64,000 bases of DNA from an uncultured Candidatus Saccharibacteria bacterium. Its GTDB lineage: Bacteria > Patescibacteriota > Saccharimonadia > CAILAD01 > BJGX01. The stretch is taken from contig CAYMHI010000003.1 of the NCBI GenBank assembly GCA_964390265.1, forward strand, positions 1,332-65,331. Direction: 5' to 3'. The position numbers were made by a program, and so were the translations under genes. Below, in pieces: positions 2,331 through 20,475 of the stretch; position 1 is the stretch's first letter, and every line of letters starts with the position of its first letter. The notes beneath the pieces are model-generated. The model saw nothing but the letters and a program-made list of their open reading frames with translations, was not told the origin of the DNA and ran no database searches.

Positions 2331-3677
2331 TTGGTGAGTATGCTTATATCTGATAATATATATTATATGCGTACACTAATAGCTGATCTAATTAACCATC
2401 CAAATAGCAACAAAACAATTTCGGGCTGGCTTCACAAGCGAAGACTACTTGGTGGTATTAATTTTTTAATTATCAGAGATAGAACCGGACTAGTGCAGGT
2501 GCTGGTAAAAGACGAGGTAGAGATAAAAAAACTTGATGGTATGCAGTTGGGTACGGTACTAACCATAAGCGGTACAATCGTTACTGATGAAAGAGCACCG
2601 GGCGGGGTAGAGATTCACGAACCTAATATTGACGTAGACACACCAGTGGTTGATGTAATGCCAATTGAGATAGACAAACCTATTAGTCACAAGCCCGAAC
2701 ATTTAGAAACGCTGTTTGAAAACCGCGTACTTAACCTTCGCAATGTAGAGGAGCAAAAAATATTTAAAATTCGTTCAAGCATTAATCGATACATTCGTGA
2801 ATATCTACATCAAACTAGTTTTGTTGAAATACAAACCCCCAAGATATTGGCCGAAGCCACTGAAGGTGGGGCCGAAGTATTTAAGCTTGACTACTATACT
2901 AGAGAGGCCACCCTGGCTCAAAGCCCTCAACTTTACAAGCAAATCATGGTGGGGGTCTATGAGAGAGTATTTGAGATTGGCCCAGCATACCGAGCCGAGC
3001 CGAGCACAACCACTCGCCACATGAGCGAAGTGACTATGCTAGATATTGAGATGGGTTTTGTAAAAAACCATACTGAAGTGCTTGATTTTGTAGGTAATAT
3101 GACCATAGAAGTGATAAAAAGAACTTACGATGAACACGCCAATGATCTAAAAAGCTTAGGTGCACCCGAGCTAAATCTAACTAACGAGGTACCTAAGTAT
3201 ACCGTAGCTCAAATTCACGAACTTTACACCAAAGACACCGGCAATGATACCACCAACGAGAAAGACCTAATTCCGGCAGAAGAGCGCTGGATAAGTGAGT
3301 ATGCCCAAGAAAAACATAGTACCGATCTAGTTTACGCCACCGAGTTCCCTGTAGAGGCAATGAAGTTTTATCATCAGATCAATCCTGAGAACCCAAAAAC
3401 GGTCTTGTGGGGCGACCTGTTATTTAGAGGTCTTGAGATATCAACCGTACCGCTGCGAGAGCATCGATACGAAGTGTTAATTGAGCAGATGAAAAAAGCC
3501 GGATTAGATGTGACCCACCCGGGCTACAAGTACTATTTACAAGCATTTAAGTTTGGCCTACCTCAGCACGGCGGCTGTGGCTTTGGTATTGACCGGTTTG
3601 TAGAAAAGCTCATTGGTCTTAACAATGTTAAAGAAGCGACGCTTTTCCCGCGGGATATGCAAAGACTAACGCCATAG
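2331..3677 (+). CDS. Class II aminoacyl-tRNA synthetase of the AspRS/AsnRS subgroup. Most likely archaeal-type aspartate--tRNA ligase, possibly non-discriminating.
   Basis: N-terminal OB-fold (FLIIRDRTGLVQV), QSPQLYKQ, motif 2 GPAYRAE, motif 3 GGCGFGIDRFV...LFPRD; length 448 aa. Confidence 0.7.
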   Translation: MVSMLISDNIYYMRTLIADLINHPNSNKTISGWLHKRRLLGGINFLIIRDRTGLVQVLVKDEVEIKKLDGMQLGTVLTISGTIVTDERAPGGVEIHEPNIDVDTPVVDVMPIEIDKPISHKPEHLETLFENRVLNLRNVEEQKIFKIRSSINRYIREYLHQTSFVEIQTPKILAEATEGGAEVFKLDYYTREATLAQSPQLYKQIMVGVYERVFEIGPAYRAEPSTTTRHMSEVTMLDIEMGFVKNHTEVLDFVGNMTIEVIKRTYDEHANDLKSLGAPELNLTNEVPKYTVAQIHELYTKDTGNDTTNEKDLIPAEERWISEYAQEKHSTDLVYATEFPVEAMKFYHQINPENPKTVLWGDLLFRGLEISTVPLREHRYEVLIEQMKKAGLDVTHPGYKYYLQAFKFGLPQHGGCGFGIDRFVEKLIGLNNVKEATLFPRDMQRLTP

Positions 3678-3688
3678 GAGACACGGGT

Positions 3689-4369
3689 ATGCAAACTACA
3701 GCCTATACGGTTGAGCTAGAGAACTTTAGCGGCCCCCTGAATGTACTACTTCAGCTAATTCAGCGCCAAAAACTTGATATATGTGAGATAAACCTAGCTA
3801 CAGTTACCAACGACTACTTGTATTTTATGCAAAATACCCAGCTCGACCAGCACTCAGCCAATTCGTTTTTAGAGATTGCCGTAAGATTAATTCTCTTTAA
3901 ATCAAAAGCATTACTGCCCAGCGAAGAAGCAATACAATCTGAGGAAGAAATTGAAGATTTAACTGAACAATTAAAATTATTGGCACTATACCAAAATACT
4001 TTTATTCAGCTAAACAGTAGCGGAGAAAATAGCCTAGTAACACGTAGACAACAAATCAAAGAGTTGGCCAATACTGTATATACCAATGTATCAGCCCAAA
4101 CTCTCTACAAAGCTATGTGTAATTTAACACTCGAAAAAAAGCCGCCAAAAATATTTAAACTAAAAAGAAAAAATAATCAATTATTACGAGCCCAGCTTCT
4201 TAAGCGCCTCAAAAGCCTAAAAAATATTCAACTCGCTGAAATTTCTACACTTGGGCAATCTAAGCAAGAAACCGTTATGTTGTTTATGATTATTTTAGAG
4301 CTTATAAATAAAAATAATGCTAGTTTAAGCACTCATTCTGGCCAAAGCACTATTGAGGTGCTGGCGTGA
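3689..4369 (+). CDS. scpA: Segregation and condensation protein A (ScpA kleisin)
   Basis: N-terminus FSGPLNVLLQLIQRQKLDICEINLATVTNDYL matches the ScpA signature; followed by scpB with a 4-nt overlap. Confidence 0.6.
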   Translation: MQTTAYTVELENFSGPLNVLLQLIQRQKLDICEINLATVTNDYLYFMQNTQLDQHSANSFLEIAVRLILFKSKALLPSEEAIQSEEEIEDLTEQLKLLALYQNTFIQLNSSGENSLVTRRQQIKELANTVYTNVSAQTLYKAMCNLTLEKKPPKIFKLKRKNNQLLRAQLLKRLKSLKNIQLAEISTLGQSKQETVMLFMIILELINKNNASLSTHSGQSTIEVLA

Positions 4370-5566: not shown

Positions 5567-6482
5567 TATGTTGGTTTACTACGCCCTTGTAGCCCTTATT
5601 ATACAGTTTAGTTTTGGTGCAAATGCTATTCTGGAAGGTTCCGCCAAGCTACTGGCTACCAACTCTCAAAAAACTGCTACTACCAAACTACCACTAACCA
5701 CCGCAAAATTCACAGCGGCTCCAGAACTTAAACCAAATTCAAATCCATTGAGCACTCAAGCCCAAGAAGCTATAGTGTATGACGTAGCTAGTGGTAAACT
5801 GCTTTACGCTAAAAATACCGATCAATCCACTAGCATTGCTTCACTCACCAAGTTAATGACGGCTTTAACAATTTTACAAAGCCACTCACCTAATGAAATG
5901 GTGACCATACCATCCAACCTTCCAGCCTTATCGAGCGACGACCAAAAAATTGGCGTTATAGCCGGTGAAAAATTTAAGTTGTCTGAGTTAATGAAAGCAC
6001 TACTAATTTACTCAGCTAACGATGTTGCCAACAGCTTAGCTATTTGGGATGCTGGCTCGGTAGAAGCTTTTAGTAGCAAGATGAATCAGAATGCTGAAAA
6101 GTGGGGATTGAGAAACTCCCATTTTGTTAACCCTAACGGTTTAGACCAGGCCAATCATTACAGCTCAGCAGCTGATATCTTGGTGATTGCTAATGTTTTA
6201 TTGCATAATCAAGATTTTAAAAAAATTGTAAACACACAGTCTACCACTATTACCAACACTGCCGGCAAAAGCTATTTACTTACCACTACTAATAAAGATC
6301 TGAGCTTGCCCTATGTATATGGCATCAAGACTGGTTTTACTGAGTTGGCCGGGCAATGCCTAATTCTCCTGTCGCAAAAAAATGGCCATGAGATTATTAC
6401 TATAGTATTAAATAGTCCAGACCGTTTCCAAGAGTCTAAAAATATGGTAGAATATACGTTCAATAATTACGTTTGGAAATAA
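5550..6482 (+). CDS. Serine-type D-Ala-D-Ala carboxypeptidase (PBP5/DacA-like), with signal peptide/TM anchor
   Basis: SxxK (SIASLTK), SxN (SAND) and KTG (KTGFT) motifs at the expected spacing. Confidence 0.65.
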   Translation: MGEDCNMLVYYALVALIIQFSFGANAILEGSAKLLATNSQKTATTKLPLTTAKFTAAPELKPNSNPLSTQAQEAIVYDVASGKLLYAKNTDQSTSIASLTKLMTALTILQSHSPNEMVTIPSNLPALSSDDQKIGVIAGEKFKLSELMKALLIYSANDVANSLAIWDAGSVEAFSSKMNQNAEKWGLRNSHFVNPNGLDQANHYSSAADILVIANVLLHNQDFKKIVNTQSTTITNTAGKSYLLTTTNKDLSLPYVYGIKTGFTELAGQCLILLSQKNGHEIITIVLNSPDRFQESKNMVEYTFNNYVWK

Positions 6483-6488
6483 ATCTTT

Positions 6489-7853
6489 ATGACTGTCAAT
6501 AATTTACCAGAAATAGCCTTGGTTGGTATGCCCAATAGCGGCAAATCTACTTTGTTTAATCGCCTAACACACTCATCTCAGGCTATTGTCTCAGAAATTG
6601 CCCATACTACCCGCGATACAAATCGAAAAATTGCCCATAGTAAATATGGCAAGTTTAATGTAATTGATACTGCTGGCTATACTAACGAAAAAGGACAAAT
6701 TCCAAAAGCTGCAATGCAACAATTAGCATACTCGCTCGATCTTGCTGACGCTATTATTTTTATTGTCGATATTACAGTTGAGCCTACTAGTGGCGACCTA
6801 TCTTTAGCTAAGCTAATTCGCAAGTCTGGCAAACCCGTGATAGTAGCGACCAATAAGGCCGACGATCAGCGCAATTCCATTCCTACTACTAACTTTCGCA
6901 AGCTTGGTTTTGAGCAAATCGTGACAATCTCAGCCATACACGGAATCGGCATAGAGGAGTTGGTGGGCCAATTAACAAAAATAATTCCTAGCAAAAAAAT
7001 TATCAAAAAATCAATCACCGATAGTATTAAGGTAGCTATTATTGGACGACCCAATGTTGGAAAATCTAGCTTACTTAACGCTTTAGCTGGAAAAAAATTA
7101 GCTATCGAGGCTGATGAGCCTGGCACCACCCGTGATACTAACGAGTTCTCACTCAACTACCATGGCTCTAATATTACTATTATTGATACCGCTGGGTTGC
7201 GTCGACCAGGTAAAATTGCCAAGGCTGAGAATATTGAATTTTACTCAAAGGTAAGAACCAAAAAGGCTATTGAAAACTCCGATATTTGTTTGATGCTAAT
7301 TGACTCTGACGATCCCGCCACTGCCCAAGATCAGCACCTCTTGGGGATGATAAAAGATGCCCAGCGTGGCCTTATAATTGTCGCTACCAAATGGGATGCA
7401 GCTGAAAAAGATTCGCACACAATGGCCGAAGTTACATCAAAACTTAAAAGTAAGCTTCAGTTTGTTTGGTGGGCTCCATTAATTTTTACATCGGCTAAAA
7501 CTAGACAAAATATTGATCAACTACTGAAAATTATAATTGATGTAAATAAGCGTCTCGATTTTAGCCTGAGTACACCTAAACTAAATAGATTTTTAGAAGA
7601 TGCCAACGCCAAAAATCCACCAGCGGCAATCAAGACTAAAAAACCCAAGGTAAATTATATTACTCAAACCGGCACCCGGCCGCTGGAGTTGACAATTTTT
7701 GCCACCCATCCCGAGTACATGCACTGGAGCTACACCAGATTCTTAGAAAACCAACTTCGCGAACAACACGATCTTACCGGGGTGCCTGTAGCTATAAAGT
7801 ACAAGAGTAAATATAAAGAGGGTAACCGCGATAGGTATAAGGCAAAAAAATGA
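6489..7853 (+). CDS. der: Ribosome-biogenesis GTPase Der (EngA), tandem GTPase domains plus KH-like C-terminus
   Basis: Two G1 motifs (GMPNSGKST, GRPNVGKSS), two DTAG motifs, NKxD motifs. Confidence 0.8.
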   Translation: MTVNNLPEIALVGMPNSGKSTLFNRLTHSSQAIVSEIAHTTRDTNRKIAHSKYGKFNVIDTAGYTNEKGQIPKAAMQQLAYSLDLADAIIFIVDITVEPTSGDLSLAKLIRKSGKPVIVATNKADDQRNSIPTTNFRKLGFEQIVTISAIHGIGIEELVGQLTKIIPSKKIIKKSITDSIKVAIIGRPNVGKSSLLNALAGKKLAIEADEPGTTRDTNEFSLNYHGSNITIIDTAGLRRPGKIAKAENIEFYSKVRTKKAIENSDICLMLIDSDDPATAQDQHLLGMIKDAQRGLIIVATKWDAAEKDSHTMAEVTSKLKSKLQFVWWAPLIFTSAKTRQNIDQLLKIIIDVNKRLDFSLSTPKLNRFLEDANAKNPPAAIKTKKPKVNYITQTGTRPLELTIFATHPEYMHWSYTRFLENQLREQHDLTGVPVAIKYKSKYKEGNRDRYKAKK

Positions 7854-7866
7854 TAAACTATTAATT

Positions 7867-8424
7867 ATGAAACTTATTGTAGGACTCGGTAACCCAGGAA
7901 CGGAATATGCTAAAACCAGGCACAATCTGGGATATATGGTTGTTGATGAGCTATGCAGTAGATGGGGTATAAGTTTAAGTAATAATGACAAACTCAAAAC
8001 TCAGATATTCACGGGACTTATAGATAACCAAACTTTAGTGCTGGCAAAACCACAGACTTTTATGAACTTAAGTGGCCAAGCGGTTCAAAAAGTAAAACAA
8101 TTCTATAAGTTAAATAATGCCGATATTTGGGTTATTAGCGACGATCTCGATCTTGAATTTGGCAAAATACGAACCCGTATTGGTGGCAGCAGTGGGGGAC
8201 ACAATGGACTCAAAAATATCATAGAACAGATTGGTGACGATTTTGTTCGTATTCGTATAGGCATCAAGAATCAAACTTTAACATCGATTCCAGCCGATAA
8301 GTTCGTGTTGCAAATATTTGATAAGAATGAAGAGAATAAATTACCAGATATAATTAACCATACGGTCCAAGTAATCTTGGGTTCATTAGAAAATGGCGTC
8401 GAGCATACTTCTGTCTTATCATAG
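7867..8424 (+). CDS. pth: Peptidyl-tRNA hydrolase
   Basis: MKLIVGLGNPG...YAKTRHNLG signature N-terminus with catalytic His. Confidence 0.8.
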   Translation: MKLIVGLGNPGTEYAKTRHNLGYMVVDELCSRWGISLSNNDKLKTQIFTGLIDNQTLVLAKPQTFMNLSGQAVQKVKQFYKLNNADIWVISDDLDLEFGKIRTRIGGSSGGHNGLKNIIEQIGDDFVRIRIGIKNQTLTSIPADKFVLQIFDKNEENKLPDIINHTVQVILGSLENGVEHTSVLS

Positions 8425-8506
8425 CAATACACTATAGCTAGCTAGACAACACATTGCCGAGTTGATAACATAAAGGCGACCACCGCACCCAGAAATAGAG
8501 GTTGGG

Positions 8507-8773
8507 ATGTCTGAGCTTAGTGCTACGGAGCTAGAACTAGCCATACTTGATCGCGAAATAGCCGAGCTCGAAAGTCGCATACGCGGGTTAAGAGGGAGTT
8601 ACCGGCTTGTATCTATGTATAGCTCAAATCGAGGCATACTAAATCGCCTCCACAACCAACAACAGCTGGCCGAGATCAGCAAACAAATCAGACCTCTGCA
8701 AGAGCAGCTCACGCATAAACAACGCAGAAAAGCGATGATAGAAGAGATCGGCGCCGAGTATAGGGCCCAGTAG
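8507..8773 (+). CDS. Small hypothetical protein (88 aa), predicted coiled-coil, GC-shifted
   Basis: ORF track; heptad-like ELELAILDREIAELESRIRGL; followed by a strong hairpin terminator. Confidence 0.35.
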   Translation: MSELSATELELAILDREIAELESRIRGLRGSYRLVSMYSSNRGILNRLHNQQQLAEISKQIRPLQEQLTHKQRRKAMIEEIGAEYRAQ

Positions 8774-8813
8774 AAACTTATTATTATTATTACCGATCCG
8801 ACGATATCAGCCA

Positions 8814-8846
8814 GCTTCGTACAATCCTGTACGAAGCATTTCTTTA
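8814..8846 (+). terminator. Rho-independent terminator (9-bp perfect stem GCTTCGTAC / GTACGAAGC, 6-nt loop, T-rich tail)
   Basis: Read directly from the sequence downstream of the 8507..8773 ORF. Confidence 0.6.
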
Positions 8847-8923
8847 CAAGCTGATTTGAAGGTAGTATCATCTTAATCATTCATCGCAAAGCGCGATTTG
8901 TACCTAACTTAAAGGATATTGTA

Positions 8924-9202
8924 ATGAGCCAAGACTTTACAGCAACTCAGACCAATACCTACACACAAACGTGGATTGCAGAGCTCGAGGCTGATACTGA
9001 ACGTCTCATGAGTAAAAGACAAAAACTTGAGGTTCGATATGATCGTTGCGAGCCAGGAACGCTATATAGCGACTGGCGAGGATGGATAAAGCGACGTAGA
9101 TGCAACCGCCTGCGTCGTCGCATTCTTCGGCTCGACAAAGCCATCGGTAGAAAGGGCGATGCCGTTACTCAACTCAAACTCAACGAAGTAGGGAGGCTAT
9201 GA
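8924..9202 (+). CDS. Small hypothetical protein (92 aa), highly basic Arg-rich C-terminal half (RRRCNRLRRRILRL)
   Basis: ORF track; RBS-like AAAGGA upstream; no recognisable domain. Confidence 0.3.
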   Translation: MSQDFTATQTNTYTQTWIAELEADTERLMSKRQKLEVRYDRCEPGTLYSDWRGWIKRRRCNRLRRRILRLDKAIGRKGDAVTQLKLNEVGRL

Positions 9203-9206
9203 GATA

Positions 9207-9476
9207 ATGCCCACACTTGGTGAACTACAGGCAGAATTTAATTCATTGCAGCTTGAAGTATTGCAAAATCTAAACCATATGGCTTCTCGTGGCGGACGAG
9301 GCATACAATCTGCACAAGCCGAAGCTAACAATAGAACACTTTTTGAGAAGATGGTAGCGATTAATGATCAAATTCGAGTACATCCATCTGGAACGTGGCG
9401 AGATATCAAGCGCCAAGAAAAAGCACATCGCTTAGACCGGTTAACCGAGCATCGACGAGCACGTGACCAATTATAA
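9207..9476 (+). CDS. Small hypothetical protein (89 aa), charged/helical
   Basis: ORF track; starts 4 nt after the preceding ORF, suggesting an operon. Confidence 0.3.
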   Translation: MPTLGELQAEFNSLQLEVLQNLNHMASRGGRGIQSAQAEANNRTLFEKMVAINDQIRVHPSGTWRDIKRQEKAHRLDRLTEHRRARDQL

Positions 9477-9580
9477 CGTAATGTCCTCATTAGTTTATGG
9501 GGATTTTTTATTATTTATGCAAAATAATAAGTTTATACCGCTCCATGCTAGCAATGTGTAAAAAAGTCCGTTAATATGAA

Positions 9581-9616
9581 AAGCAGACCTGCCGTACGAA
9601 TCGAACAGATCTGCTT
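9581..9616. repeat. Imperfect hairpin (AAGCAGAcctg ... cagaTCTGCTT) within the structured intergenic region
   Basis: 7-bp perfect plus 3 of 4 extended inverted repeat with a 14-nt loop, seen in the sequence. Confidence 0.45.
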
Positions 9617-9687
9617 ATCACACCCTTTCATACCCCCAAAGAATTGGGATTTGTCAGTCTCATAATAAATAATTAGACCGTGGTAAT

Positions 9688-9771
9688 GAAAGGGAGTAAT
9701 CTGCTAGCGAGAATCTAAAAGGAGGGTGAGTTTTAGACATTGCCTCGACTAGCAGATTACTCCCTTTAATC
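9688..9771. repeat. Near-perfect 23-bp inverted repeat (GAAAGGGAGTAATCTGCTAGCGAG / CTCGaCTAGCAGATTACTCCCTTT). The 37-nt loop itself contains a 7-bp inner inverted repeat (TCTAAAA/TTTTAGA).
   Basis: Seen directly in the sequence; not followed by a T-run on either strand. Confidence 0.6.
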
Positions 9772-9896
9772 ATAAAGAGCTTAAATCTATTAAGTTTTTA
9801 ATCCGACAAGTATTGTATCACGCTAGTGCTTATTTGTCAATACTATTTTCTCCATATTATTTATTACTCTTATGGTCTATAGATAAGCACAGTTTT

Positions 9897-10748
9897 ATGA
9901 ATATACAAGAATTATCATATAATAGCAATAGTTATCCGCAGCTTTTAAGCAACATATCATCACCGCCCAAAAAACTCTACTGCTTAGGGCAAATTCCTGA
10001 CTTACCTATGGTGGCAATTGTTGGTAGCCGTAAACCAAGTAATTATGGCGAACAAATGACCCACCAATTAGCCTACGACCTCGCCAGTGCTGGAATGTGC
10101 ATAGTAAGTGGCTTAGCCTACGGCGTAGATGCAATTGCGCACCGTGCCGCACTTGAGGCTGGTGGAAAAGTAGTGGCCGTACTGGGCACACCACTAGACA
10201 CTATCTACCCAGCAGCCAATAGAGATCTCGCCAAAAAAATACTTGGCCATGGAGGAGCCATATTAAGTGAATACGAGGTAGGTACCAATACTCAACGATT
10301 TAATTTTCCGGCTCGCAATAGAATAATAGCTGGCTTAAGCTTAGCCACCATTATCACCGAGGCTAATGCCCAGAGCGGCAGCCTTATAACCGCTAATTTT
10401 GCCATCACTAACGATAGGTTGGTAATGGCCGTACCAGGTAACCTCACCAGCCCACGAAGTGCTGGGCCCAATAATCTCATTAAACTAGGCGCCAAACTAA
10501 TTACCGATGCCACCGATGTGCTAGCCGAACTAGAACTCAAAAGTAGTGTATTGCAGGCCAAAAAGATTGCTCCCGCTAGTAAAGAGGAGGCTATAGTATC
10601 CGAACTAATCGCCGCAGGGCATAACAACACTCATACCATGATAGAAAATAGTGAGTTTGATGCCGCCCGGCTTGCACATGTTCTTAGCCTAATGGAGATT
10701 ACTGGCAAGATACGTAATCTTGGTGCCGGACAGTGGATGTTGAATTAA
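9897..10748 (+). CDS. dprA: DNA processing protein DprA (Smf), Rossmann-like DNA-binding domain
   Basis: AIVGSRKPSNYGEQ...GLAYGVDAIAHRAALEAGGKVVAVLGTPLD signature. Start placed at the internal ATG (MNIQEL...) rather than the ORF-track start 9813, because the first 28 codons are hydrophobic and poorly DprA-like. Confidence 0.7.
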   Translation: MNIQELSYNSNSYPQLLSNISSPPKKLYCLGQIPDLPMVAIVGSRKPSNYGEQMTHQLAYDLASAGMCIVSGLAYGVDAIAHRAALEAGGKVVAVLGTPLDTIYPAANRDLAKKILGHGGAILSEYEVGTNTQRFNFPARNRIIAGLSLATIITEANAQSGSLITANFAITNDRLVMAVPGNLTSPRSAGPNNLIKLGAKLITDATDVLAELELKSSVLQAKKIAPASKEEAIVSELIAAGHNNTHTMIENSEFDAARLAHVLSLMEITGKIRNLGAGQWMLN

Positions 10749-10817: not shown

Positions 10818-11240
10818 ATGAAAGCCTTTGTAGCATATCGCCATACCGGTGAAGATCCAGTCAAGCTGAGGCAATACATGTCAGCTCTACAATTTGCTTC
10901 TCAACAATCAGGGCTTGAGTATTACTGCACCTACTTTGATGAAAACGTTTTTCAAGACAGACTGATGGGGCCGCGCGATATCATGCACCACGCTTTTAAC
11001 ACAATCAAGAACGAGTGCGATTTCTTACTCGTTATTCTGGCCTCTGACGAAAAAAGTGAAGGCATGCTAATGGAGGTGGGCTACTGCATCGCCAACAACA
11101 TCCCGGTGGTCGTGGTTGTCTCAACCGAAGTTCAGAATTCGTACTTGCCCGAACTAGCCAATCAAGTATTTTGGTGGACACAAATTGGCGAGCTAGAGGA
11201 GGCTTTGACTAGGGTCGACATTCGGCACCTGGTCAAGTAA
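10818..11240 (+). CDS. Standalone nucleoside 2-deoxyribosyltransferase-like (SLOG/Rossmannoid) protein, 140 aa
   Basis: MKAFVAY N-terminus; DFLLVILASDEKSEGMLMEVGYCIANNIPVVVV resembles the NDT active-site region (acidic residue plus E-x-GY). Confidence 0.4.
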   Translation: MKAFVAYRHTGEDPVKLRQYMSALQFASQQSGLEYYCTYFDENVFQDRLMGPRDIMHHAFNTIKNECDFLLVILASDEKSEGMLMEVGYCIANNIPVVVVVSTEVQNSYLPELANQVFWWTQIGELEEALTRVDIRHLVK

Positions 11241-11303
11241 CTTATTCACCCCTTAGCGGGGTGTTTTTATTTTGTTATAAATAGTTTGCTATAATGAGTC
11301 TAT

Positions 11304-13133
11304 ATGTGTGGAATAGTTGGCTGTACAGGCAATAAGCAAGCAGGCCCAATTTTGTTGGAAGGCTTAAAGCGCTTGGAGTACCGAGGCTATGACTCGGCGG
11401 GAATTGCGACTATAGCCTCTGGCAAGTTATCAATTGTTAAAGAAAAAGGTAAACTCGATAATCTCAAGTTATCTCTCTCTAAGAAACCTCTAAAAGGTAA
11501 TGTTGGGATTGGTCACACCCGTTGGGCCACCCATGGGGAGCCATCAAAGCTTAATGCGCACCCACATGTAGCCGGCAATACCATCGCAGTAGTTCATAAT
11601 GGAATAATAGAAAACTATTCCGAACTCAAAAAATCACTATACAAGAAAGGCTATAAATTCCTAAGTGACACCGACAGCGAGGTAATAGCCTGGCTTATTT
11701 ATGATTATTACCTTAAATCTAAAGATATATTGAAGGCATCTCAACAATGTGTAGCCCAATTAGAAGGAACTTTTGGCATCTTGGTAATTTGCAAAGATCT
11801 ACCAGACACAATCGTAGCAATACGTCGAGGCAGCCCGCTACTTATAGGGATCGGCAAAAACGAAATATATTTTGCCAGCGACACTAACGCGATAGTAAAT
11901 TACACAAACAAAATAGTATACCTTAAAGACAATGAGTTGGCCGTATGTGAAGGTGGTGACTACCAAATAATAGATTTTGAAAATAATATACAAAAGCGCG
12001 ATGTAAACCGTATTGATACCTCGAGCGCAATCATTAAGAAGGGTGGATATAAACACTTTTTATTAAAAGAAATAATGGAACAGCCAGAAGTAATAATAAA
12101 TGCTACCCGGGGTAGACTAAGACCGCAAGAAGGTAGCGCCGTTTTGGGTGGAATCAATTTGACTCCTAATAGACTAAATCGATTTGATAGGTTATTAACA
12201 ATAGGCTGTGGCAGCGCTTACTATGCGGGATTGCTAGGTAAGTACATATTAGAGCGTATCGCCCTTGTACCAGTAGACATAGAATACGCGTCAGAGTTTC
12301 GCTACCGTCAGCCAGTTATTAATAAAAACACCTTGGCATTGATTATAAGCCAATCTGGCGAAACGGCCGACAGCTTGGCGAGCCTACAAGAACTCAAGCG
12401 AAAAAACATATTTACACTTGGCATAATCAATACGGTAGGCTCAACAATTGCTCGTGAGGTAGATGGCGGCACCTACATTCACGCCGGGCCAGAAATATCG
12501 GTGGCATCTACCAAAGCCTTTAGTGCTCAGGTAATTGTGCAAACTATGTTGGCCATTCAGATTGCTAGAGGTAAAACTATGAATATTACAGAAGGCCAGG
12601 CCATAGTTAAGGCTATATCTCTGCTACCGGAGCTGATCCAAAAAGTGCTTGATGCAAAAAAGCAAATTGAAATAATTGCCAAAAAGGTAGCAAAATACAA
12701 TGATGTGTTTTATTTGGGTAGAGATTTGTTGTACCCAATTGCTCTTGAGGGTTCTCTTAAACTAAAAGAAATTAGCTATATACATGCCGAGGCCTACCCA
12801 GCCGGCGAGATGAAGCACGGGCCAATTGCTTTAATCGACAAAAATTTCTTAAGCGTGTTTTTGTGCCCCCAAAATAGCACTTACTCAAAGACTCTAAGTA
12901 ACCTTGAGGAAACCAAAGCCCGTGGTGGTGAGGCGGTAATAGTTGCCAGCGAGGGAGATAAAGAGGTAACTAAGCACTCAACTAATATTATTAGCATTCC
13001 AGTTTGCGATGAGCTTATACAGCCACTGGTTGTAAATGTTGCATTGCAACTCTTTGCTTACTTTGTGGCAGTAGAACGTGGCACCGATGTAGATCAACCC
13101 CGCAACTTAGCCAAAAGTGTCACAGTAGAGTAG
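11304..13133 (+). CDS. glmS: Glutamine--fructose-6-phosphate aminotransferase (isomerising)
   Basis: N-terminal MCGIVG Ntn-amidotransferase nucleophile, two SIS domains, C-terminal ...VTVE. Confidence 0.85.
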   Translation: MCGIVGCTGNKQAGPILLEGLKRLEYRGYDSAGIATIASGKLSIVKEKGKLDNLKLSLSKKPLKGNVGIGHTRWATHGEPSKLNAHPHVAGNTIAVVHNGIIENYSELKKSLYKKGYKFLSDTDSEVIAWLIYDYYLKSKDILKASQQCVAQLEGTFGILVICKDLPDTIVAIRRGSPLLIGIGKNEIYFASDTNAIVNYTNKIVYLKDNELAVCEGGDYQIIDFENNIQKRDVNRIDTSSAIIKKGGYKHFLLKEIMEQPEVIINATRGRLRPQEGSAVLGGINLTPNRLNRFDRLLTIGCGSAYYAGLLGKYILERIALVPVDIEYASEFRYRQPVINKNTLALIISQSGETADSLASLQELKRKNIFTLGIINTVGSTIAREVDGGTYIHAGPEISVASTKAFSAQVIVQTMLAIQIARGKTMNITEGQAIVKAISLLPELIQKVLDAKKQIEIIAKKVAKYNDVFYLGRDLLYPIALEGSLKLKEISYIHAEAYPAGEMKHGPIALIDKNFLSVFLCPQNSTYSKTLSNLEETKARGGEAVIVASEGDKEVTKHSTNIISIPVCDELIQPLVVNVALQLFAYFVAVERGTDVDQPRNLAKSVTVE

Positions 13134-13204
13134 TTACACAGATTGACTATCGTATAAATTACTATATAATCTGTAGCGTAAATGCACCTACGAGGGGAGA
13201 GAAT

Positions 13205-13648
13205 ATGTGGTTTAAGTCTAGTGACAAGAGACTTATTGATGTTTCGAGTTGCTCATTGCAACTTATGGCAGACCCTAATGGCAAATGGGGAGATCAAGCA
13301 ATCATGCTTAGCGGCCCTTTTCAACGAGCCCTGTTTACAGACAGGCATATTCGGCGACATAACACCGCGATCGTGACAGAAATCACTATGGCCGACGTAT
13401 GGCTAGCTCTCGAGCAGCTATTGCAGGAGGGACTCAACATTGTTGCCGAAAACGACGAGCAAGTTCTTGATAGAGCCCAGGCTATTGTAGATGCCAGCAC
13501 AGTAAAAACAAATTCATCAAGTGTAGCTAATGCGCCACCCGACACTTTCTCAATGGTAATTCATACCACTTATGGACCAGTACGTGGCACTTTCCTGGCC
13601 GATCCACTCGTTGACGCCAAAACCGAACCCGGAGAAGGCGACTCGTAA
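13205..13648 (+). CDS. Hypothetical protein (147 aa), GC-shifted, strong RBS GAGGGGAGAG
   Basis: ORF track; RBS; no domain recognised. Confidence 0.35.
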   Translation: MWFKSSDKRLIDVSSCSLQLMADPNGKWGDQAIMLSGPFQRALFTDRHIRRHNTAIVTEITMADVWLALEQLLQEGLNIVAENDEQVLDRAQAIVDASTVKTNSSSVANAPPDTFSMVIHTTYGPVRGTFLADPLVDAKTEPGEGDS

Positions 13649-16621: not shown

Positions 16622-17689
16622 ATGCCAATTAAGAAACAAAATGTAAGTCAAAAACAGCTAGATTCACTTATTAATGACAGTCTTGAGTTACTCAAAAAAG
16701 ACCGAGATAGAGAGATATTACTACGACGCTACGGTGTAGCCACTGGTAAAACCCAAACTCTAGAACAAATTGGCCAAGACTTAGGCATTACTCGTGAACG
16801 TGTTCGACAGATAGAGAAGGCAGCTATCACCAAGATTCGCGAGCAAGCTCGTCACGATCATGAACTAAATGACATATTAGTAGCTATTACCAATGAAAAG
16901 GGCGGAATAATTGGCTTCGCCTCGCTAATAAATGAACTCGGCCTTGATGGAAAGCAACGTCCGCACTTAAGTTTTTTACTCAAACTTAACCCCAACTTTA
17001 CCTTTTTAGACCGTAGTGATCAGCACGCTGATTTGGTGTTTCTAAGTGACAGCTACAAAGAGGATGGGGTACGTAAATTACACGAACAAATCATAACTGT
17101 CGCCAAAGAGAGTGGCAAACCAGTTAAATTTGATAAATTAGTCAGTAAAATTAGCGGTGAGCACAAAACACAATCACTGCAAGAGCTAGCAGCGGCCAGC
17201 ACCCAGTTAGCTCAACTAGATAACGTATGGGGGTTAAGCATATGGCCTGAGGTCAACCCTAAAAGCATTCGTGACAAAATATATTTGGTACTCAAAAAGG
17301 GTGGTCGCCCAATGCACTTTACCGAAATTTCTACAAAAATAGAGGTAATGCCTGCCAACCCCAAAAAAGTTACTACTCAAGCCGTGCACAATGAGCTTAT
17401 TAAAGACTCTAGATTCGTGCTGATTGGTCGAGGTATTTACGCACTAGGCGAATGGGGCTATCAAAGCGGCACGGTTGCCGATATAATTGAAGAAGTACTA
17501 CGAGAAAATTCACCAATTAGCAGAGAAGATATTATTACTCAAGTTTTGGCTCGCAGACAAGTCAAAACTACCACTATCACGCTAAATCTGCAAGAAAAAC
17601 CGCAATTCGTACGTACCAGCAATGGCGATTATCAGCTCAAAAAGGGCTATAAGCCCAGCCCTAGCAAAAGCCGTCGCGGCGGTCGGTAA
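16622..17689 (+). CDS. DNA-binding protein with N-terminal sigma-70 region-4-like HTH and C-terminal HARE-HTH-like domain(s)
   Basis: LLRRYGVATGKTQTLEQIGQDLGITRERVRQIEKAAITKIR (sigma r4 pattern); MHFTEISTKIE...DSRFVLIGRGIYALGEWGY (RpoE-delta/HARE-HTH pattern). Confidence 0.5.
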   Translation: MPIKKQNVSQKQLDSLINDSLELLKKDRDREILLRRYGVATGKTQTLEQIGQDLGITRERVRQIEKAAITKIREQARHDHELNDILVAITNEKGGIIGFASLINELGLDGKQRPHLSFLLKLNPNFTFLDRSDQHADLVFLSDSYKEDGVRKLHEQIITVAKESGKPVKFDKLVSKISGEHKTQSLQELAAASTQLAQLDNVWGLSIWPEVNPKSIRDKIYLVLKKGGRPMHFTEISTKIEVMPANPKKVTTQAVHNELIKDSRFVLIGRGIYALGEWGYQSGTVADIIEEVLRENSPISREDIITQVLARRQVKTTTITLNLQEKPQFVRTSNGDYQLKKGYKPSPSKSRRGGR

Positions 17690-17757
17690 CTAAAAGCCGA
17701 TTACAAATTTTTATATATTTACCTTAACTTGTTCCGTCTTATTTTAAATAGCACCTC

Positions 17758-20475
17758 ATGAATACTTTGCTCTCATTTATTTCAACTTCTATAGCCGTGA
17801 TTGGTACAATTCTTTTTCAGTTTTGGGGCTGGACGCTAATTGCTGCATATCTTATATTTATGATATGGAAGAATAACCAAAAAGTTGAGTACATCAAAAC
17901 ATCCGAACATAATCTACTCCACATAGTGGTTCCCAAAGATAACGAAAAAAAAGAACTCTCGGCCGAGCAAATGTTTGCCAGCCTACACGGCATATTGCAA
18001 TCTACTAGCGAGTTAACCCAAGAGAAACGCATACAAGACCATATAAGTTTTGAAATTGTCGCTCGCGACTCAGTAATTCATTTTTACGTATGGACGCCCA
18101 AACAACTTAAAGACTTTGTGACTAGCCAAATCTATGCACAATATCCTACCGTGCAAATTAGTGAGATGGCTCATGACTATGCCGAGCAAGAAGGTTTAGA
18201 CCCCAACCGAGTATATTCTACCGAGATTACCCTTATTAAAGACGAAATATTTCCTATAAGAACTTTTCAAACCTTTGAGGTTGACCCCTTGGCTGGCCTA
18301 ACGACCGTGTTGGCCTCAATAACCGAAGGTGAACAGTTGTGGATTCAATTCTTGATGGAGCCAGTAGATGATAGCTGGCACAAAAAAAGTCTGCAATACA
18401 TTAGTGAGATAGTGAATGGTAAAAAACCCGGTAGATTCGAGAATCTTGGTGCTAAATCGTTGGTAGCTATTAAGGCTCTCTCGGTACCACCCAGCGTTCA
18501 AGCCGCCAATGATAAAAAACCCGAAAAAAAAGAGCTTAGTCCTGGGCAAACTACACTCAACTCTGCTATCGAAACTAAGGCCGAAAAGCTCGGCTACGCT
18601 GTAAAAATTAGAGCTGTCTACGTTGGCGACAACGACACTGCCGCCAAAACTCGTATGCAAGCTCTCGTAGGAGGCTTTAAGCAATTCAACACGATTAACC
18701 TAAATGGTTTTACTAATACTGGTCTACTTAACGGCGAGGCCGCTTTAAAACAGTATCAAGAGCGTGAATTTGATGATGCCGGATATGTACTGAATATTGA
18801 AGAAATTGCAAGTCTTTATCACTTACCGCACACCAGTGTAGAGACTCCAGGTGTGGCCTACACTAGCACCAAGGTGGGAGAGCCGCCCAGCAATCTACCA
18901 ACCGTTAACAACACTCCAGCTAAGGATATAAGCTTGTTTGGTGTTACCACATTTAGGCAAGCTAATATTAAGTTTGGTATCAAACGCGAAGATCGCAAAC
19001 GTCATATGTATATCATTGGTAAATCCGGAAGTGGTAAATCATTCTTGCTTAATCTTTTAACCCTATCTGACATCTACCATAACGAAGGTTTTGCAGTAGT
19101 CGACCCTCACGGCGATTATGCTCAAGATATGTTGCGCTACATACCCGAACACCGCCTAGACGATGTAGTATACTTCAACCCCGCCGATGGTGAATTTCCG
19201 GTGGCCTTTAATCCAATGGAAGTTTATGATGTCAATCGCCGAAGCAACGTTGCCTCCGAAATTGTTGGGGTACTGAAAAAAATGTTTGGTGACAGTTGGG
19301 GGCCACGACTTGAGCATATCTTGCGCTATACACTACTTGCATTACTAGAAACCCCTAACACAACCCTCTTGGGCATTACCAGAATGCTAACCGATAAAAA
19401 ATATCGAAATGAAATAATTGCTAACGTTCAAGACCCGGTTGTAAAAGCCTTTTGGATAAATGAATTTGCCAGCTGGAACGATAAATTCGCCTCTGAGGCT
19501 GTAGCGCCGGTACTTAACAAGGTTGGAGCTTTCACTGCCAACCCTTTAATTCGTAATGTTATTGGTCAAGAAAAAAGTACCTTTAGTATTCGTAAAATGA
19601 TGGATGAAGGCAAGATCTTAATTGTCGATCTTAGTCGCGGTAAAATAGGTGAAGACAATGCCAGTATATTAGGTAGTCTACTGATTACAAAGATTCAGCT
19701 TGATGCTATGAGCCGAGCCGATATACCTAATATTGATGATCGCCGGCCGTTTTATCTATATGTCGACGAATTTCAAAATTTTGCTACTGAAAGTTTTGCC
19801 GTAATTCTGTCTGAAGCTCGAAAATACGGACTGTATTTAACGGTAGCTAATCAATATATTGCCCAAATGCCCGAAGAAGTAAGGGATGCAGTATTTGGTA
19901 ATGTAGGTAGTATGATTACTTTTAGAGTGGGCGCCGAAGATGCTACTAGCTTAGCCCGTTACTTTGAACCTGTATTTGAGCCTCTAGATTTAGTAAATTT
20001 GGATAAACAAGATATATACGTTAGTATGAGCATTGACGGTCAAACTAGTCTGCCTTTCTCAGCAAAGACTCTATTTGTACCTAAATCTCCATCTGATCAA
20101 TCGGCTAAGATTTTGGAACTAAGTCGCCATAAATACTCAAGCGGTAAAGCCAGCGTAGAAGACGCTATCGCGAAATGGAGCGGTATGAATGAAGAAAAAC
20201 CTACCGATAACTCGGGTGGGGGATCAAATACCGAACAAAAAATTGCCGGTACCGCTGCTAGCTTGCCATCGCTTAGAGTGAGTGGAGCCGAGCCCAAAAA
20301 ATACAGCGAGATGGTAAAAGGTAAAAGTCAAAATATTAATAATCGCCAAAACCAACCTTATAGACCTAATAATAATCAAGGTGGTGGTCAACGCCGCGAC
20401 GACAACCGAAGGGGCAATAACTCTAGTAGCCAAGGCGGCCATAATAAACCATTCTACCCCAAAAAGAAAAACTAG
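17758..20475 (+). CDS. Membrane-anchored FtsK/HerA-superfamily ATPase of the TraG/TraD/VirD4 type-IV-coupling-protein type. It has a roughly 380-aa unknown domain between the N-terminal TM hairpin and the NTPase, and a C-terminal Gly/Asn/Gln/Arg-rich disordered tail.
   Basis: Two N-terminal TM segments; Walker A IIGKSGSGKSFLLNLL about 420 aa in; Walker B-like YLYVDEFQNF about 240 aa later (spacing typical of T4CPs); low-complexity tail NNRQNQPYRPNNNQGGGQRRDDNRRGNN. Confidence 0.55.
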   Translation: MNTLLSFISTSIAVIGTILFQFWGWTLIAAYLIFMIWKNNQKVEYIKTSEHNLLHIVVPKDNEKKELSAEQMFASLHGILQSTSELTQEKRIQDHISFEIVARDSVIHFYVWTPKQLKDFVTSQIYAQYPTVQISEMAHDYAEQEGLDPNRVYSTEITLIKDEIFPIRTFQTFEVDPLAGLTTVLASITEGEQLWIQFLMEPVDDSWHKKSLQYISEIVNGKKPGRFENLGAKSLVAIKALSVPPSVQAANDKKPEKKELSPGQTTLNSAIETKAEKLGYAVKIRAVYVGDNDTAAKTRMQALVGGFKQFNTINLNGFTNTGLLNGEAALKQYQEREFDDAGYVLNIEEIASLYHLPHTSVETPGVAYTSTKVGEPPSNLPTVNNTPAKDISLFGVTTFRQANIKFGIKREDRKRHMYIIGKSGSGKSFLLNLLTLSDIYHNEGFAVVDPHGDYAQDMLRYIPEHRLDDVVYFNPADGEFPVAFNPMEVYDVNRRSNVASEIVGVLKKMFGDSWGPRLEHILRYTLLALLETPNTTLLGITRMLTDKKYRNEIIANVQDPVVKAFWINEFASWNDKFASEAVAPVLNKVGAFTANPLIRNVIGQEKSTFSIRKMMDEGKILIVDLSRGKIGEDNASILGSLLITKIQLDAMSRADIPNIDDRRPFYLYVDEFQNFATESFAVILSEARKYGLYLTVANQYIAQMPEEVRDAVFGNVGSMITFRVGAEDATSLARYFEPVFEPLDLVNLDKQDIYVSMSIDGQTSLPFSAKTLFVPKSPSDQSAKILELSRHKYSSGKASVEDAIAKWSGMNEEKPTDNSGGGSNTEQKIAGTAASLPSLRVSGAEPKKYSEMVKGKSQNINNRQNQPYRPNNNQGGGQRRDDNRRGNNSSSQGGHNKPFYPKKKN

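Follow-up and report, generated by a model that had tools for sequence, protein, structure and literature searches.

A probable lineage-restricted islet of three small orphan genes, and a candidate small-RNA gene beside it, in a Candidatus Saccharibacteria genome

The DNA analysed is a 64,000-nucleotide (nt) stretch of a Candidatus Saccharibacteria genome (here the window, in whose positions all coordinates are given), and its pth and dprA genes are separated by three small open reading frames (ORF1, ORF2, and ORF3) and a structured non-coding region. Comparison with relatives indicates that the ORF block, hereafter the islet, is a lineage-restricted insertion and not conserved gene content; the site itself is regarded as recurrent because the spacer is empty or filled with unrelated cargo depending on the lineage. 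The structured region is best explained as a small-RNA (sRNA) gene with predicted transcription from the minus strand, and is a more solid discovery than the three ORFs. Taken as a whole, the description of a lineage-restricted accessory islet in this genome appears reasonably probable, with much less confidence attaching to any specific biochemical role.

8425–9528: lineage-restricted insertion (islet), about 1.1 kb, from the pth stop codon to the conserved 3′ flank of the sRNA gene
8507–8773, plus strand: ORF1, 88 amino acids (aa), orphan, isoelectric point (pI) 9.3, with its own promoter-like site and terminator
8924–9202, plus strand: ORF2, 92 aa, orphan, very basic, predicted helical hairpin
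9207–9476, plus strand: ORF3, 89 aa, orphan, predicted three-helix protein
9530–9555, minus strand: conserved box AGTTTATACCGCTCCATGCTAGCAAT / AGTTTATnCCGCTCCATGCTAGCAAT with the palindrome TGCTAGCA
9573–9805, minus strand: candidate sRNA gene of ~235 nt, predicted transcript from about 9805 to about 9573
7867–8424, plus strand: pth (peptidyl-tRNA hydrolase), left flank, Pfam Pept_tRNA_hydro, E value (E) 1.7e-60
9897–10748, plus strand: dprA, right flank, Pfam DNA_processg_A, E 1.2e-74

A metagenome collection was scanned with one 20-mer from the structured region, yielding 14 loci. All 14 carry a homologue of this region that is 76–85% identical, arranged in the order der, pth, structured region, dprA, and often then topA, and their Pth proteins share 51–63% identity with that of the window. 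A first-pass annotation of the window had called the block a mini-island and had proposed comparing relatives for its presence or absence between pth and dprA. The comparison bears this out, with the block missing from most relatives, in which pth, the sRNA gene, and dprA all lie within about 400 nt: in eight lineages, the pth–dprA spacer measures only 386–406 nt and consists of the structured region alone (the empty site), and in five others a different insert occupies the same spot, between the pth stop codon and the conserved box.

L016: insert of 1.25 kb, with ORFs of 85 and 113 aa
L097: insert of 0.39 kb, with one ~77-aa ORF
L102: insert of 0.55 kb, with a 172-aa NUDIX hydrolase gene on the other strand (L102 509–1027 in oriented coordinates, minus strand; Pfam E 7.6e-15)
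L104: insert of 0.55 kb, with a ~135-aa Cys/His-rich ORF
L105: insert of 0.63 kb, with an 80-aa ORF

The right edge of every insertion is the box at 9530–9555, which lies beyond the sRNA terminator and is found in 13 of 13 aligned lineages, either directly after pth or directly after the insert; this box could be a protein-binding, processing, or recombination site. The location given earlier, between pth and dprA, is correct but not in the sense of direct adjacency on both sides, the block sitting between pth and the minus-strand RNA gene that precedes dprA. As pth and the RNA gene converge, an insertion here would break no promoter, and the spacer may tolerate cargo for this reason. The cargo proteins compared (ORF1 to ORF3, the two L016 proteins, and the ORFs of L097, L104, and L105) show no reliable mutual homology by BLASTP, phmmer, or hhalign, with the best match (L016_A with L097_A) reaching E 0.009 in a set of eight sequences. 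A weak alignment between the ORF1–ORF2 spacer and its L016 equivalent (z about 3) is suggestive only. A near-identical terminator-like hairpin, CTCTCACAnnTAAnTTGTGAGAGTTTT, was also seen in the otherwise unrelated inserts of L016 (about 7452–7480) and L104 (about 2663–2690, both in oriented coordinates), and hints at a partly common ancestry of these two inserts. Neither an integrase or recombinase gene in the 1.1 kb nor direct (att-like) repeats bracketing the block were found, and its neighbors are housekeeping genes, with no mobility or phage genes nearby.

Proteins 85–100% identical to each of the three ORF products were located, among 5.8 billion clusters, on short metagenomic contigs, and every islet-bearing contig read has the order pth–ORF1–ORF2–ORF3–dprA. 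These contigs represent five lineages: the window group, L009/L010, L011–L015, L001–L005, and L008. The first three differ by 2.5% in pth, and the deep ones by 18–20%. Variable sites at first, second, and third codon positions number 8/6/16 in ORF1, 12/9/20 in ORF2, 14/8/32 in ORF3, and 32/16/110 in pth; a separate comparison of codon-position divergence in ORF3 gave 12/6/30. The ratio of nonsynonymous to synonymous divergence (dN/dS, Nei-Gojobori) is 0.14–0.38 for ORF1 (Fisher p values to 1e-4), 0.18–0.25 for ORF2 between the deep lineages, and 0.11 for ORF3 (p 1e-11), compared with 0.06 for pth and 0.04 for dprA, and is significantly below 1 for all three ORFs in Fisher tests. All three frames are open and free of indels in four to five lineages (ORF1 being intact in five), while the ORF1–ORF2 spacer (ig2) carries indels of 3–9 nt. 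The antisense ORFs are broken in other lineages (that of ORF2 in three), with the exception of one at 8599–8880. Because dN/dS is low, the sense frames are indel-free beside a spacer that carries indels, and the antisense frames break, the three ORFs are judged from this substitution pattern to be true protein-coding genes, under purifying selection weaker than that in the neighboring housekeeping genes. Two findings that were named at the outset as fatal to the mini-island—housekeeping-like conservation in all relatives, and ORFs that prove non-coding for lack of conservation in frame—were therefore looked for and not obtained, the block being lineage-restricted and its ORFs coding.

The exceptional antisense ORF (8599–8880, minus strand, 93 codons) overlaps the 3′ half of ORF1, the ORF1 terminator, and the ORF2 promoter, and would encode a hydrophobic, Cys-rich product. 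It is open in four of the five lineages and frameshifted in L008 alone; the indels that preserve its frame lie within an (ATT)n run, in which slippage yields multiples of three anyway. It is probably a by-product of the composition of the sense strand.

The islet had also been described as shifted in guanine-plus-cytosine (GC) content relative to its neighbors, and this statement stands for two of the three genes. GC content is 0.494 in ORF1, 0.491 in ORF2, and 0.437 in ORF3, against a mean of 0.406 (standard deviation 0.033) for 60 larger genes of the window, whose overall GC content is 40.4%. Of 63 window genes, ORF1 and ORF2 have the highest GC content (z about 2.6), whereas ORF3 is ordinary (z 0.95); 300-nt windows inside dprA also reach 0.48–0.49. 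Under the codon usage of the genome, the amino acids encoded would by themselves give 0.435 for ORF1, 0.454 for ORF2, and 0.461 for ORF3, so that about half of the excess in ORF1 and ORF2 is compositional (Arg, Ala, Glu, Gln, and Leu). A clear excess at third codon positions (GC3) is confined to ORF1 (0.517, z 3.4). When synonymous codon usage was compared with that of size-matched gene chunks, as had been recommended, ORF1 fell in the lowest 0.3% and ORF2 in the lowest 1.6%, and both are thus atypical; ORF3, at 27%, is typical and appears native.

A tract of low divergence runs through part of the islet and beyond its left border.

8317–9202: low-divergence tract, comprising the 3′ end of pth (last ~100 nt), ORF1, and ORF2, defined by third-position divergence between species-level lineages

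Between the window and L001, nucleotide identity and synonymous divergence (dS) are 80% and 1.45 for pth, 94% and 0.17 for ORF1, 92% and 0.24 for ORF2, 82% and 0.80 for ORF3, and 84% and 0.99 for dprA. In blocks of 50 codons, third-position divergence is 0.05–0.18 over 8317–9202 versus 0.3–0.5 elsewhere; within pth, the block 8317–8424 shows 0.11 versus 0.44–0.58 in the remainder of the gene. Synonymous divergence in the tract is thus about five times below that of the flanking genes. The tract ends at the ORF2/ORF3 junction, which agrees with codon usage that looks foreign in ORF1 and ORF2 but native in ORF3. Two shorter patches of low divergence from L001, with third-position values of 0.14–0.18, were observed at 3531–3840 (aspS/scpA) and 6150–6640 (dac/der), and such patches suggest frequent homologous recombination among these Saccharibacteria lineages. 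The tract spans a gene boundary and resembles others found within housekeeping genes. For these reasons it is read as a recombination mosaic and probably reflects recent recombination between lineages; constraint at the RNA level, considered as the cause of ORF1 and ORF2 conservation, was dropped since the tract reaches into pth and has counterparts elsewhere. Among close lineages, ORF2 is the most variable segment (5–8.6%, versus 2.5% for pth), with dN/dS of 0.4–0.7, and its residues 37–49 hold seven of the 11 amino-acid changes between the window and L009.

Three consecutive plus-strand ORFs of 88, 92, and 89 aa were confirmed at the positions listed above, with ORF3 beginning at 9207, 4 nt past the ORF2 stop at 9202. 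The signals around them, which are consensus matches rather than mapped transcript ends, are the following.

8443–8471, plus strand: promoter-like site of ORF1, TAGACA-17-TAACAT, with TG before the −10 element (consensus scan)
8814–8837, plus strand: intrinsic terminator of ORF1, 10-bp stem, −15.4 kcal/mol, T-rich tail
8843–8871, plus strand: promoter-like site of ORF2–ORF3, TTTACA-17-TATCAT, 10 of 12 consensus matches (consensus scan)
9483–9504, plus strand: terminator-like hairpin 3′ of ORF3, 8-bp stem followed by a T run, −9.4 kcal/mol

These signals delimit two predicted transcription units, ORF1 alone and ORF2–ORF3. The spacer between pth and ORF1 (ig1), which holds the ORF1 promoter-like site, is 93–96% conserved between lineages, and the ORF2–ORF3 site is kept among the islet-bearing lineages. 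The strong terminator assigned to ORF1 at first reading was borne out, with a compensatory change from U-A to C-G in its stem in three further lineages (L009, L001, and L008). Joint translation of ORF2 and ORF3 is inferred because the Shine-Dalgarno (SD)-like motif GGGAGG of ORF3 falls within the 3′ end of ORF2. A 16-nt AT-rich inverted repeat (8770–8785 and 9523–9538, 15 of 16 positions complementary) flanks the ORF2–ORF3 unit, its right arm reaching into the conserved sRNA-gene flank. The repeat could be a chance occurrence or a trace of how this unit came in.

At the protein level, ORF2 is the most distinctive of the three. Its extreme Arg richness, noted from the start, is evident in the segment RRRCNRLRRRILRL, and the protein as a whole has 15 Arg residues, a pI of 10.3, and a net charge of +8.5. 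AlphaFold2 modeling from the single sequence gave an antiparallel helical hairpin with helices at residues 3–42 and 51–91 (predicted local distance difference test score, pLDDT, 86), whose tip is the variable patch at 37–49 and whose second helix contains the Arg-rich segment. ORF3, modeled in the same way, consists of three helices (pLDDT 84.5). For ORF1, a coiled coil had been proposed; an a/d-like spacing (L11-L14-I18-L21-I25-L28) and some matches to coiled-coil Pfam entries below threshold point that way, but a test for 3.5-residue periodicity was not significant, so that the coiled coil is not established and ORF1 is described only as probably helical. None of the three has a hydrophobic N-terminus on sequence inspection, and the products are inferred to be cytoplasmic.

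Pfam, NCBIfam, PHROGs, and PADLOC yielded no family hit for these proteins, in keeping with the earlier observation that they lack housekeeping motifs, and a PDB sequence search gave nothing credible. Foldseek comparison with the PDB returned only generic helical hairpins for ORF2 (best E 0.1) and E 0.7 for ORF3, and the ORF3 model matched BFVD structures at E 1 or worse. A full HMMER search of ORF1 against 1.84 billion representatives recovered its 95% identical relative only, with no true homologue beyond 91% identity; the one extra hit, P0009, a 980-aa protein whose score is inflated by seven tandem repeats, was rejected as a false positive. Neither IMG/VR nor 50,697 phage records (INPHARED; blastn and tblastn) contain a relative of the three, which was the outcome of the viral database search that the first-pass annotation had called for. 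BLASTP revealed no mutual paralogy among the ORFs, and no paralogues elsewhere in the window. Across these searches, ORF1 to ORF3 have no detectable relative outside a narrow clade.

The sequence of events and functions that we favor is as follows. About 1.1 kb is inserted in the tail-to-tail spacer between pth and the conserved minus-strand sRNA gene, the latter lying divergently upstream of dprA. After the lineages had split, the ORF1–ORF2 segment would have been exchanged between them by homologous recombination, and ORF3 inherited vertically. ORF2 and ORF3 would be translated together, with coupling probable given the position of the ORF3 SD motif, and their products would probably form a helical-bundle complex, in which the Arg-rich second helix of ORF2 may bind nucleic acid and its fast-changing hairpin tip may contact a variable partner. 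As to function, the best guess is a small module that binds nucleic acid and serves in regulation or conflict, not in housekeeping. Several points weigh against parts of this account. The claim of an insertion hot spot is based on 15 lineages, 12 of which were fetched with one sRNA 20-mer. The spacer ig2, although inside the low-divergence tract, is only 85% identical and carries indels, and the low synonymous divergence could stem partly from selection at the mRNA level instead of recombination. The proposed binding and complex formation are deduced from charge, predicted helices, and gene spacing, and the AlphaFold2 models come from single sequences, for which helical hairpins are easily over-predicted. 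A bolder version, which we consider doubtful, would make the pth–sRNA spacer a nursery or landing pad where genes for small helical proteins are repeatedly gained, replaced, and exchanged between species by recombination, possibly through natural transformation. On this view ORF1 to ORF3 would constitute a new family of factors that bind nucleic acid and act in conflict or host interaction, the ORF2 tip being under diversifying selection, and the ~235-nt RNA would be a new, widely conserved Saccharibacteria riboregulator whose C-rich loop, the same in all sequences retrieved, mimics the 16S anti-SD tail.

Other explanations fit some of these observations. The first-pass annotation had likened the layout to phage-derived small-protein cassettes, and a cassette of this origin, comprising anti-defence genes or a type II toxin–antitoxin (TA)-like pair of ORF2 and ORF3, acquired horizontally and acting in phage–host or plasmid-like conflict, would account for the two ~90-aa genes 4 nt apart, the atypical GC content and codon usage of ORF1 and ORF2, the location at a recurrent insertion site, and the fast-changing ORF2 tip (dN/dS up to 0.67 among close strains). 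The ORF3 motif RQEKAH (R-x4-H), conserved as RQEGAH in L001, also loosely recalls HEPN toxins, but ORF3 is a predicted three-helix protein of 89 aa with no HEPN profile or fold match. The resemblance to such cassettes is limited to the size and spacing of ORF2 and ORF3, which recall a TA pair; the link to phages found no support, given the absence of relatives in IMG/VR and the 50,697 phage records, of PHROG, PADLOC, Pfam, or NCBIfam matches (TA, HEPN, and anti-CRISPR families included), of significant structural matches in the PDB or, for ORF3, in BFVD, and of an integrase, att-like direct repeats, or other phage genes nearby. Furthermore, ORF3 has native codon usage and has diverged in step with its flanks, unlike a recently mobile module, and we regard a phage or TA origin as improbable. 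Still less weight is given to the idea that nucleotide conservation in ORF1 and ORF2 reflects an RNA- or DNA-level function (structured mRNA, antisense transcript, or the antisense ORF at 8599–8880), with the ORFs secondary. ORF1 and ORF2 are indeed 94% and 92% identical where pth is 80% identical, third positions included, and that antisense ORF is open in four of five lineages. However, the tract enters the pth coding sequence and has counterparts in both aspS/scpA and dac/der, as recombination mosaics would; dN is well below dS in the sense frames inside the tract; the antisense ORF is frameshifted in L008 and has its in-frame indels in the (ATT)n run; and Rfam gave no hit. This explanation is accordingly rated unlikely.

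That ORF2, possibly with ORF3, is a divergent WXG100/ESAT-6-like secreted helical hairpin used in contact with the host bacterium is considered very unlikely, even though ORF2 is a 92-aa helix-turn-helix hairpin with W51-R52-G53 beside the turn and a second helical protein of ~90 aa is encoded next to it. WXG100/ESAT-6 proteins are helical hairpins of ~100 aa with W-x-G at the turn; in the predicted ORF2 hairpin the WRG at residues 51–53 stands at the start of helix 2 rather than in the 43–50 loop, which speaks clearly neither for nor against membership. Pfam WXG100 (PF06013) gives no match even at E 1, and the PDB fold matches (E>0.1) are generic hairpins and not ESAT-6. In addition, ORF2 is strongly basic, ORF3 has three predicted helices and no WXG, and no FtsK/SpoIIIE-type secretion ATPase is present among the neighbors checked. 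Closest to refutation is the notion that the ORFs are not genes but frames left open by chance in a GC-richer spacer. Short orphans without a family, in DNA whose higher GC content reduces the frequency of stop codons, might be expected on that basis, yet dN/dS is significantly below 1 for all three, their frames stay intact and indel-free in four to five lineages while spacers gain indels and antisense frames break, and they are accompanied by SD-like motifs, promoter-like sites, and a covarying terminator. A lineage-restricted accessory islet of coding genes is thus the reading that we retain.

The unusual structured non-coding region already noted after the block proved to be the more solid find. 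On the minus strand it has a minimum free energy of −90.2 kcal/mol (z −9.6) versus −71.4 kcal/mol on the plus strand, and the minus strand folds better in 13 of 13 homologues. The predicted transcript consists of a 5′ tail that is AU-rich and variable, a ~77-nt hairpin (9690–9766), a three-way-junction domain with the same fold in both sequence clades, and a terminator hairpin (9581–9616) followed by a U run. Its core is 98–99% identical among the window, L001, and L016, between which the Pth protein is 73–87% identical. In an alignment of 13 sequences, 98.8% of cells are paired and 10 pairs show compensatory changes, compared with zero to one in slid controls; canonical pairing amounts to 98.9% on the minus strand versus 92.7% on the plus strand, and several invariant G-U pairs would become A-C on the other strand. 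Homologues were seen in L016 and L096–L109. The gene would be expressed from a promoter of its own.

9812–9840, minus strand: predicted sRNA promoter, TTGACA-17-TGnTACAAT, matching the consensus at 11 of 12 positions and arranged back to back with the region upstream of dprA

TTGACA-N17-TAnnAT and the upstream TG are retained in all lineages despite changes in the spacer sequence. The region therefore shows what is generally looked for in a structured sRNA: its own predicted promoter and terminator, conservation above neutral, covarying helices, and strand asymmetry. Two ORFs inside it in the window (38 codons, minus strand; 29 codons, plus strand) were rejected as conserved peptides, their start codons being lost in relatives.

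The apical loop of the long hairpin, CUCACCCUCC (9721–9730), is identical in all sequences retrieved, an invariance that is partly one of ascertainment because, of the 13 sequences aligned besides the window, 12 derive from or contain loci fetched with that 20-mer. The loop is complementary to AAGGAGGGUGAG and resembles the 3′ tail of 16S rRNA, CACCUCCUU. A riboregulator that binds SD sequences is a reasonable idea for what this RNA could be. Searches against Rfam 15 (6S, SRP, tmRNA, RNase P, and RsaE included) gave no relevant match in the window at gathering score or E≤10, and six homologous loci were likewise negative at E≤5; no tmRNA was detected by ARAGORN, and a full-text literature search on structured RNAs of Saccharibacteria returned nothing relevant. 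Most lineages have the RNA but no islet, so there is no obligatory link between the two.

With respect to the wider locus, the gene order in the window is aspS, scpA, scpB, rluB, dac, der, pth, the three small ORFs, the non-coding stretch, dprA, further genes, and topA, and the dprA start at 9897 agrees with the gene calls of relatives. A Pth-based scan of GTDB species genomes returned mostly Firmicutes, via one conserved motif; the sole useful relative was L016, a Candidatus Saccharibacteria metagenome-assembled genome and the closest named relative, with 73% identity in Pth, 73% in Der, 81% in DprA, and 78% in TopA, values that place the source of the window within Saccharibacteria (Patescibacteria/CPR). 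A second variable spot was observed between dprA and topA (10818–13648), where three genes encode a 140-aa nucleoside 2-deoxyribosyltransferase (NDT)-like protein (GC3 0.55), GlmS, and a 147-aa orphan (48% GC). In L016 and L098, topA follows dprA directly, without these three genes, and L099 keeps the NDT-like gene only; in L001, the DNA alignment to the window is lost past dprA, and the next gene (142 aa) has no recorded Pfam hit. Further along, at 16622–20475, a 355-aa protein with sigma-70 region 4 and a HARE-HTH domain is encoded ahead of a 905-aa TrwB/HerA-like ATPase (type IV coupling-protein-like), this pair lying just before the dcw cell-wall cluster, which is on the other strand.

The islet is of modest interest as gene content, since orphan small genes are common in Saccharibacteria, whose genomes are small. 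It nevertheless provides a clean, datable example, the fixed site being empty in most lineages and holding different cargo in others, and with one segment apparently exchanged between species and another vertically inherited it offers a natural experiment on the gain and replacement of small genes in reduced episymbiont genomes. The sRNA is the more useful by-product: it is almost invariant, stands beside dprA across lineages whose Der and Pth proteins are about 47–60% identical, and belongs to no Rfam family. Provided that it is transcribed, it would rank, to our knowledge, among very few candidate riboregulators described for the phylum. Genetic tools exist for some Saccharibacteria. Overall, the sRNA and the recurrent insertion at the spacer are the parts most worth following up.

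Among known systems, the islet is closest to the strain-variable islets found at conserved RNA-gene or tail-to-tail spacers, which are small versions of the islands adjacent to tRNA and tmRNA genes. As in those, unrelated cargo lies at a fixed position by the 3′ end of a conserved RNA gene, part of it is atypical in composition (ORF1 and ORF2), presence and absence alternate among lineages, and signs of inter-lineage exchange are visible. Unlike them, the cargo here is only 0.4–1.25 kb in size and lacks an integrase or recombinase, flanking att-like direct repeats at the RNA gene, and mobility genes, and the neighboring RNA is neither a tRNA nor a tmRNA. The ORF2–ORF3 unit shares with type II TA operons two small adjacent genes with a 4-nt gap, one promoter-like site and one terminator, and a basic, possibly nucleic-acid-binding first product; it differs in that no toxin or antitoxin family or fold was recognized for either protein (Pfam, NCBIfam, and PADLOC at E≤1 apart from noise; PDB at E<0.1) and in being confined to one clade instead of patchy and wide in distribution. 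The predicted ORF2 hairpin with its basic face resembles the helical-hairpin nucleic-acid binders of the Rop/Rom type, to which it has no sequence or significant structural match. For the sRNA, the RsaE/RoxS-type sRNAs of Gram-positive bacteria, with their C-rich loops, offer the nearest parallel. Measuring about 235 nt, containing a 30-bp hairpin as well as a three-way junction, and with no Rfam match to RsaE or any other family, it is unlike these RNAs; like them, it would be transcribed on its own, from a strong sigma-70-type promoter to an intrinsic terminator, and its C-rich single-stranded loop, CUCACCCUCCUU, could pair with SD sequences.

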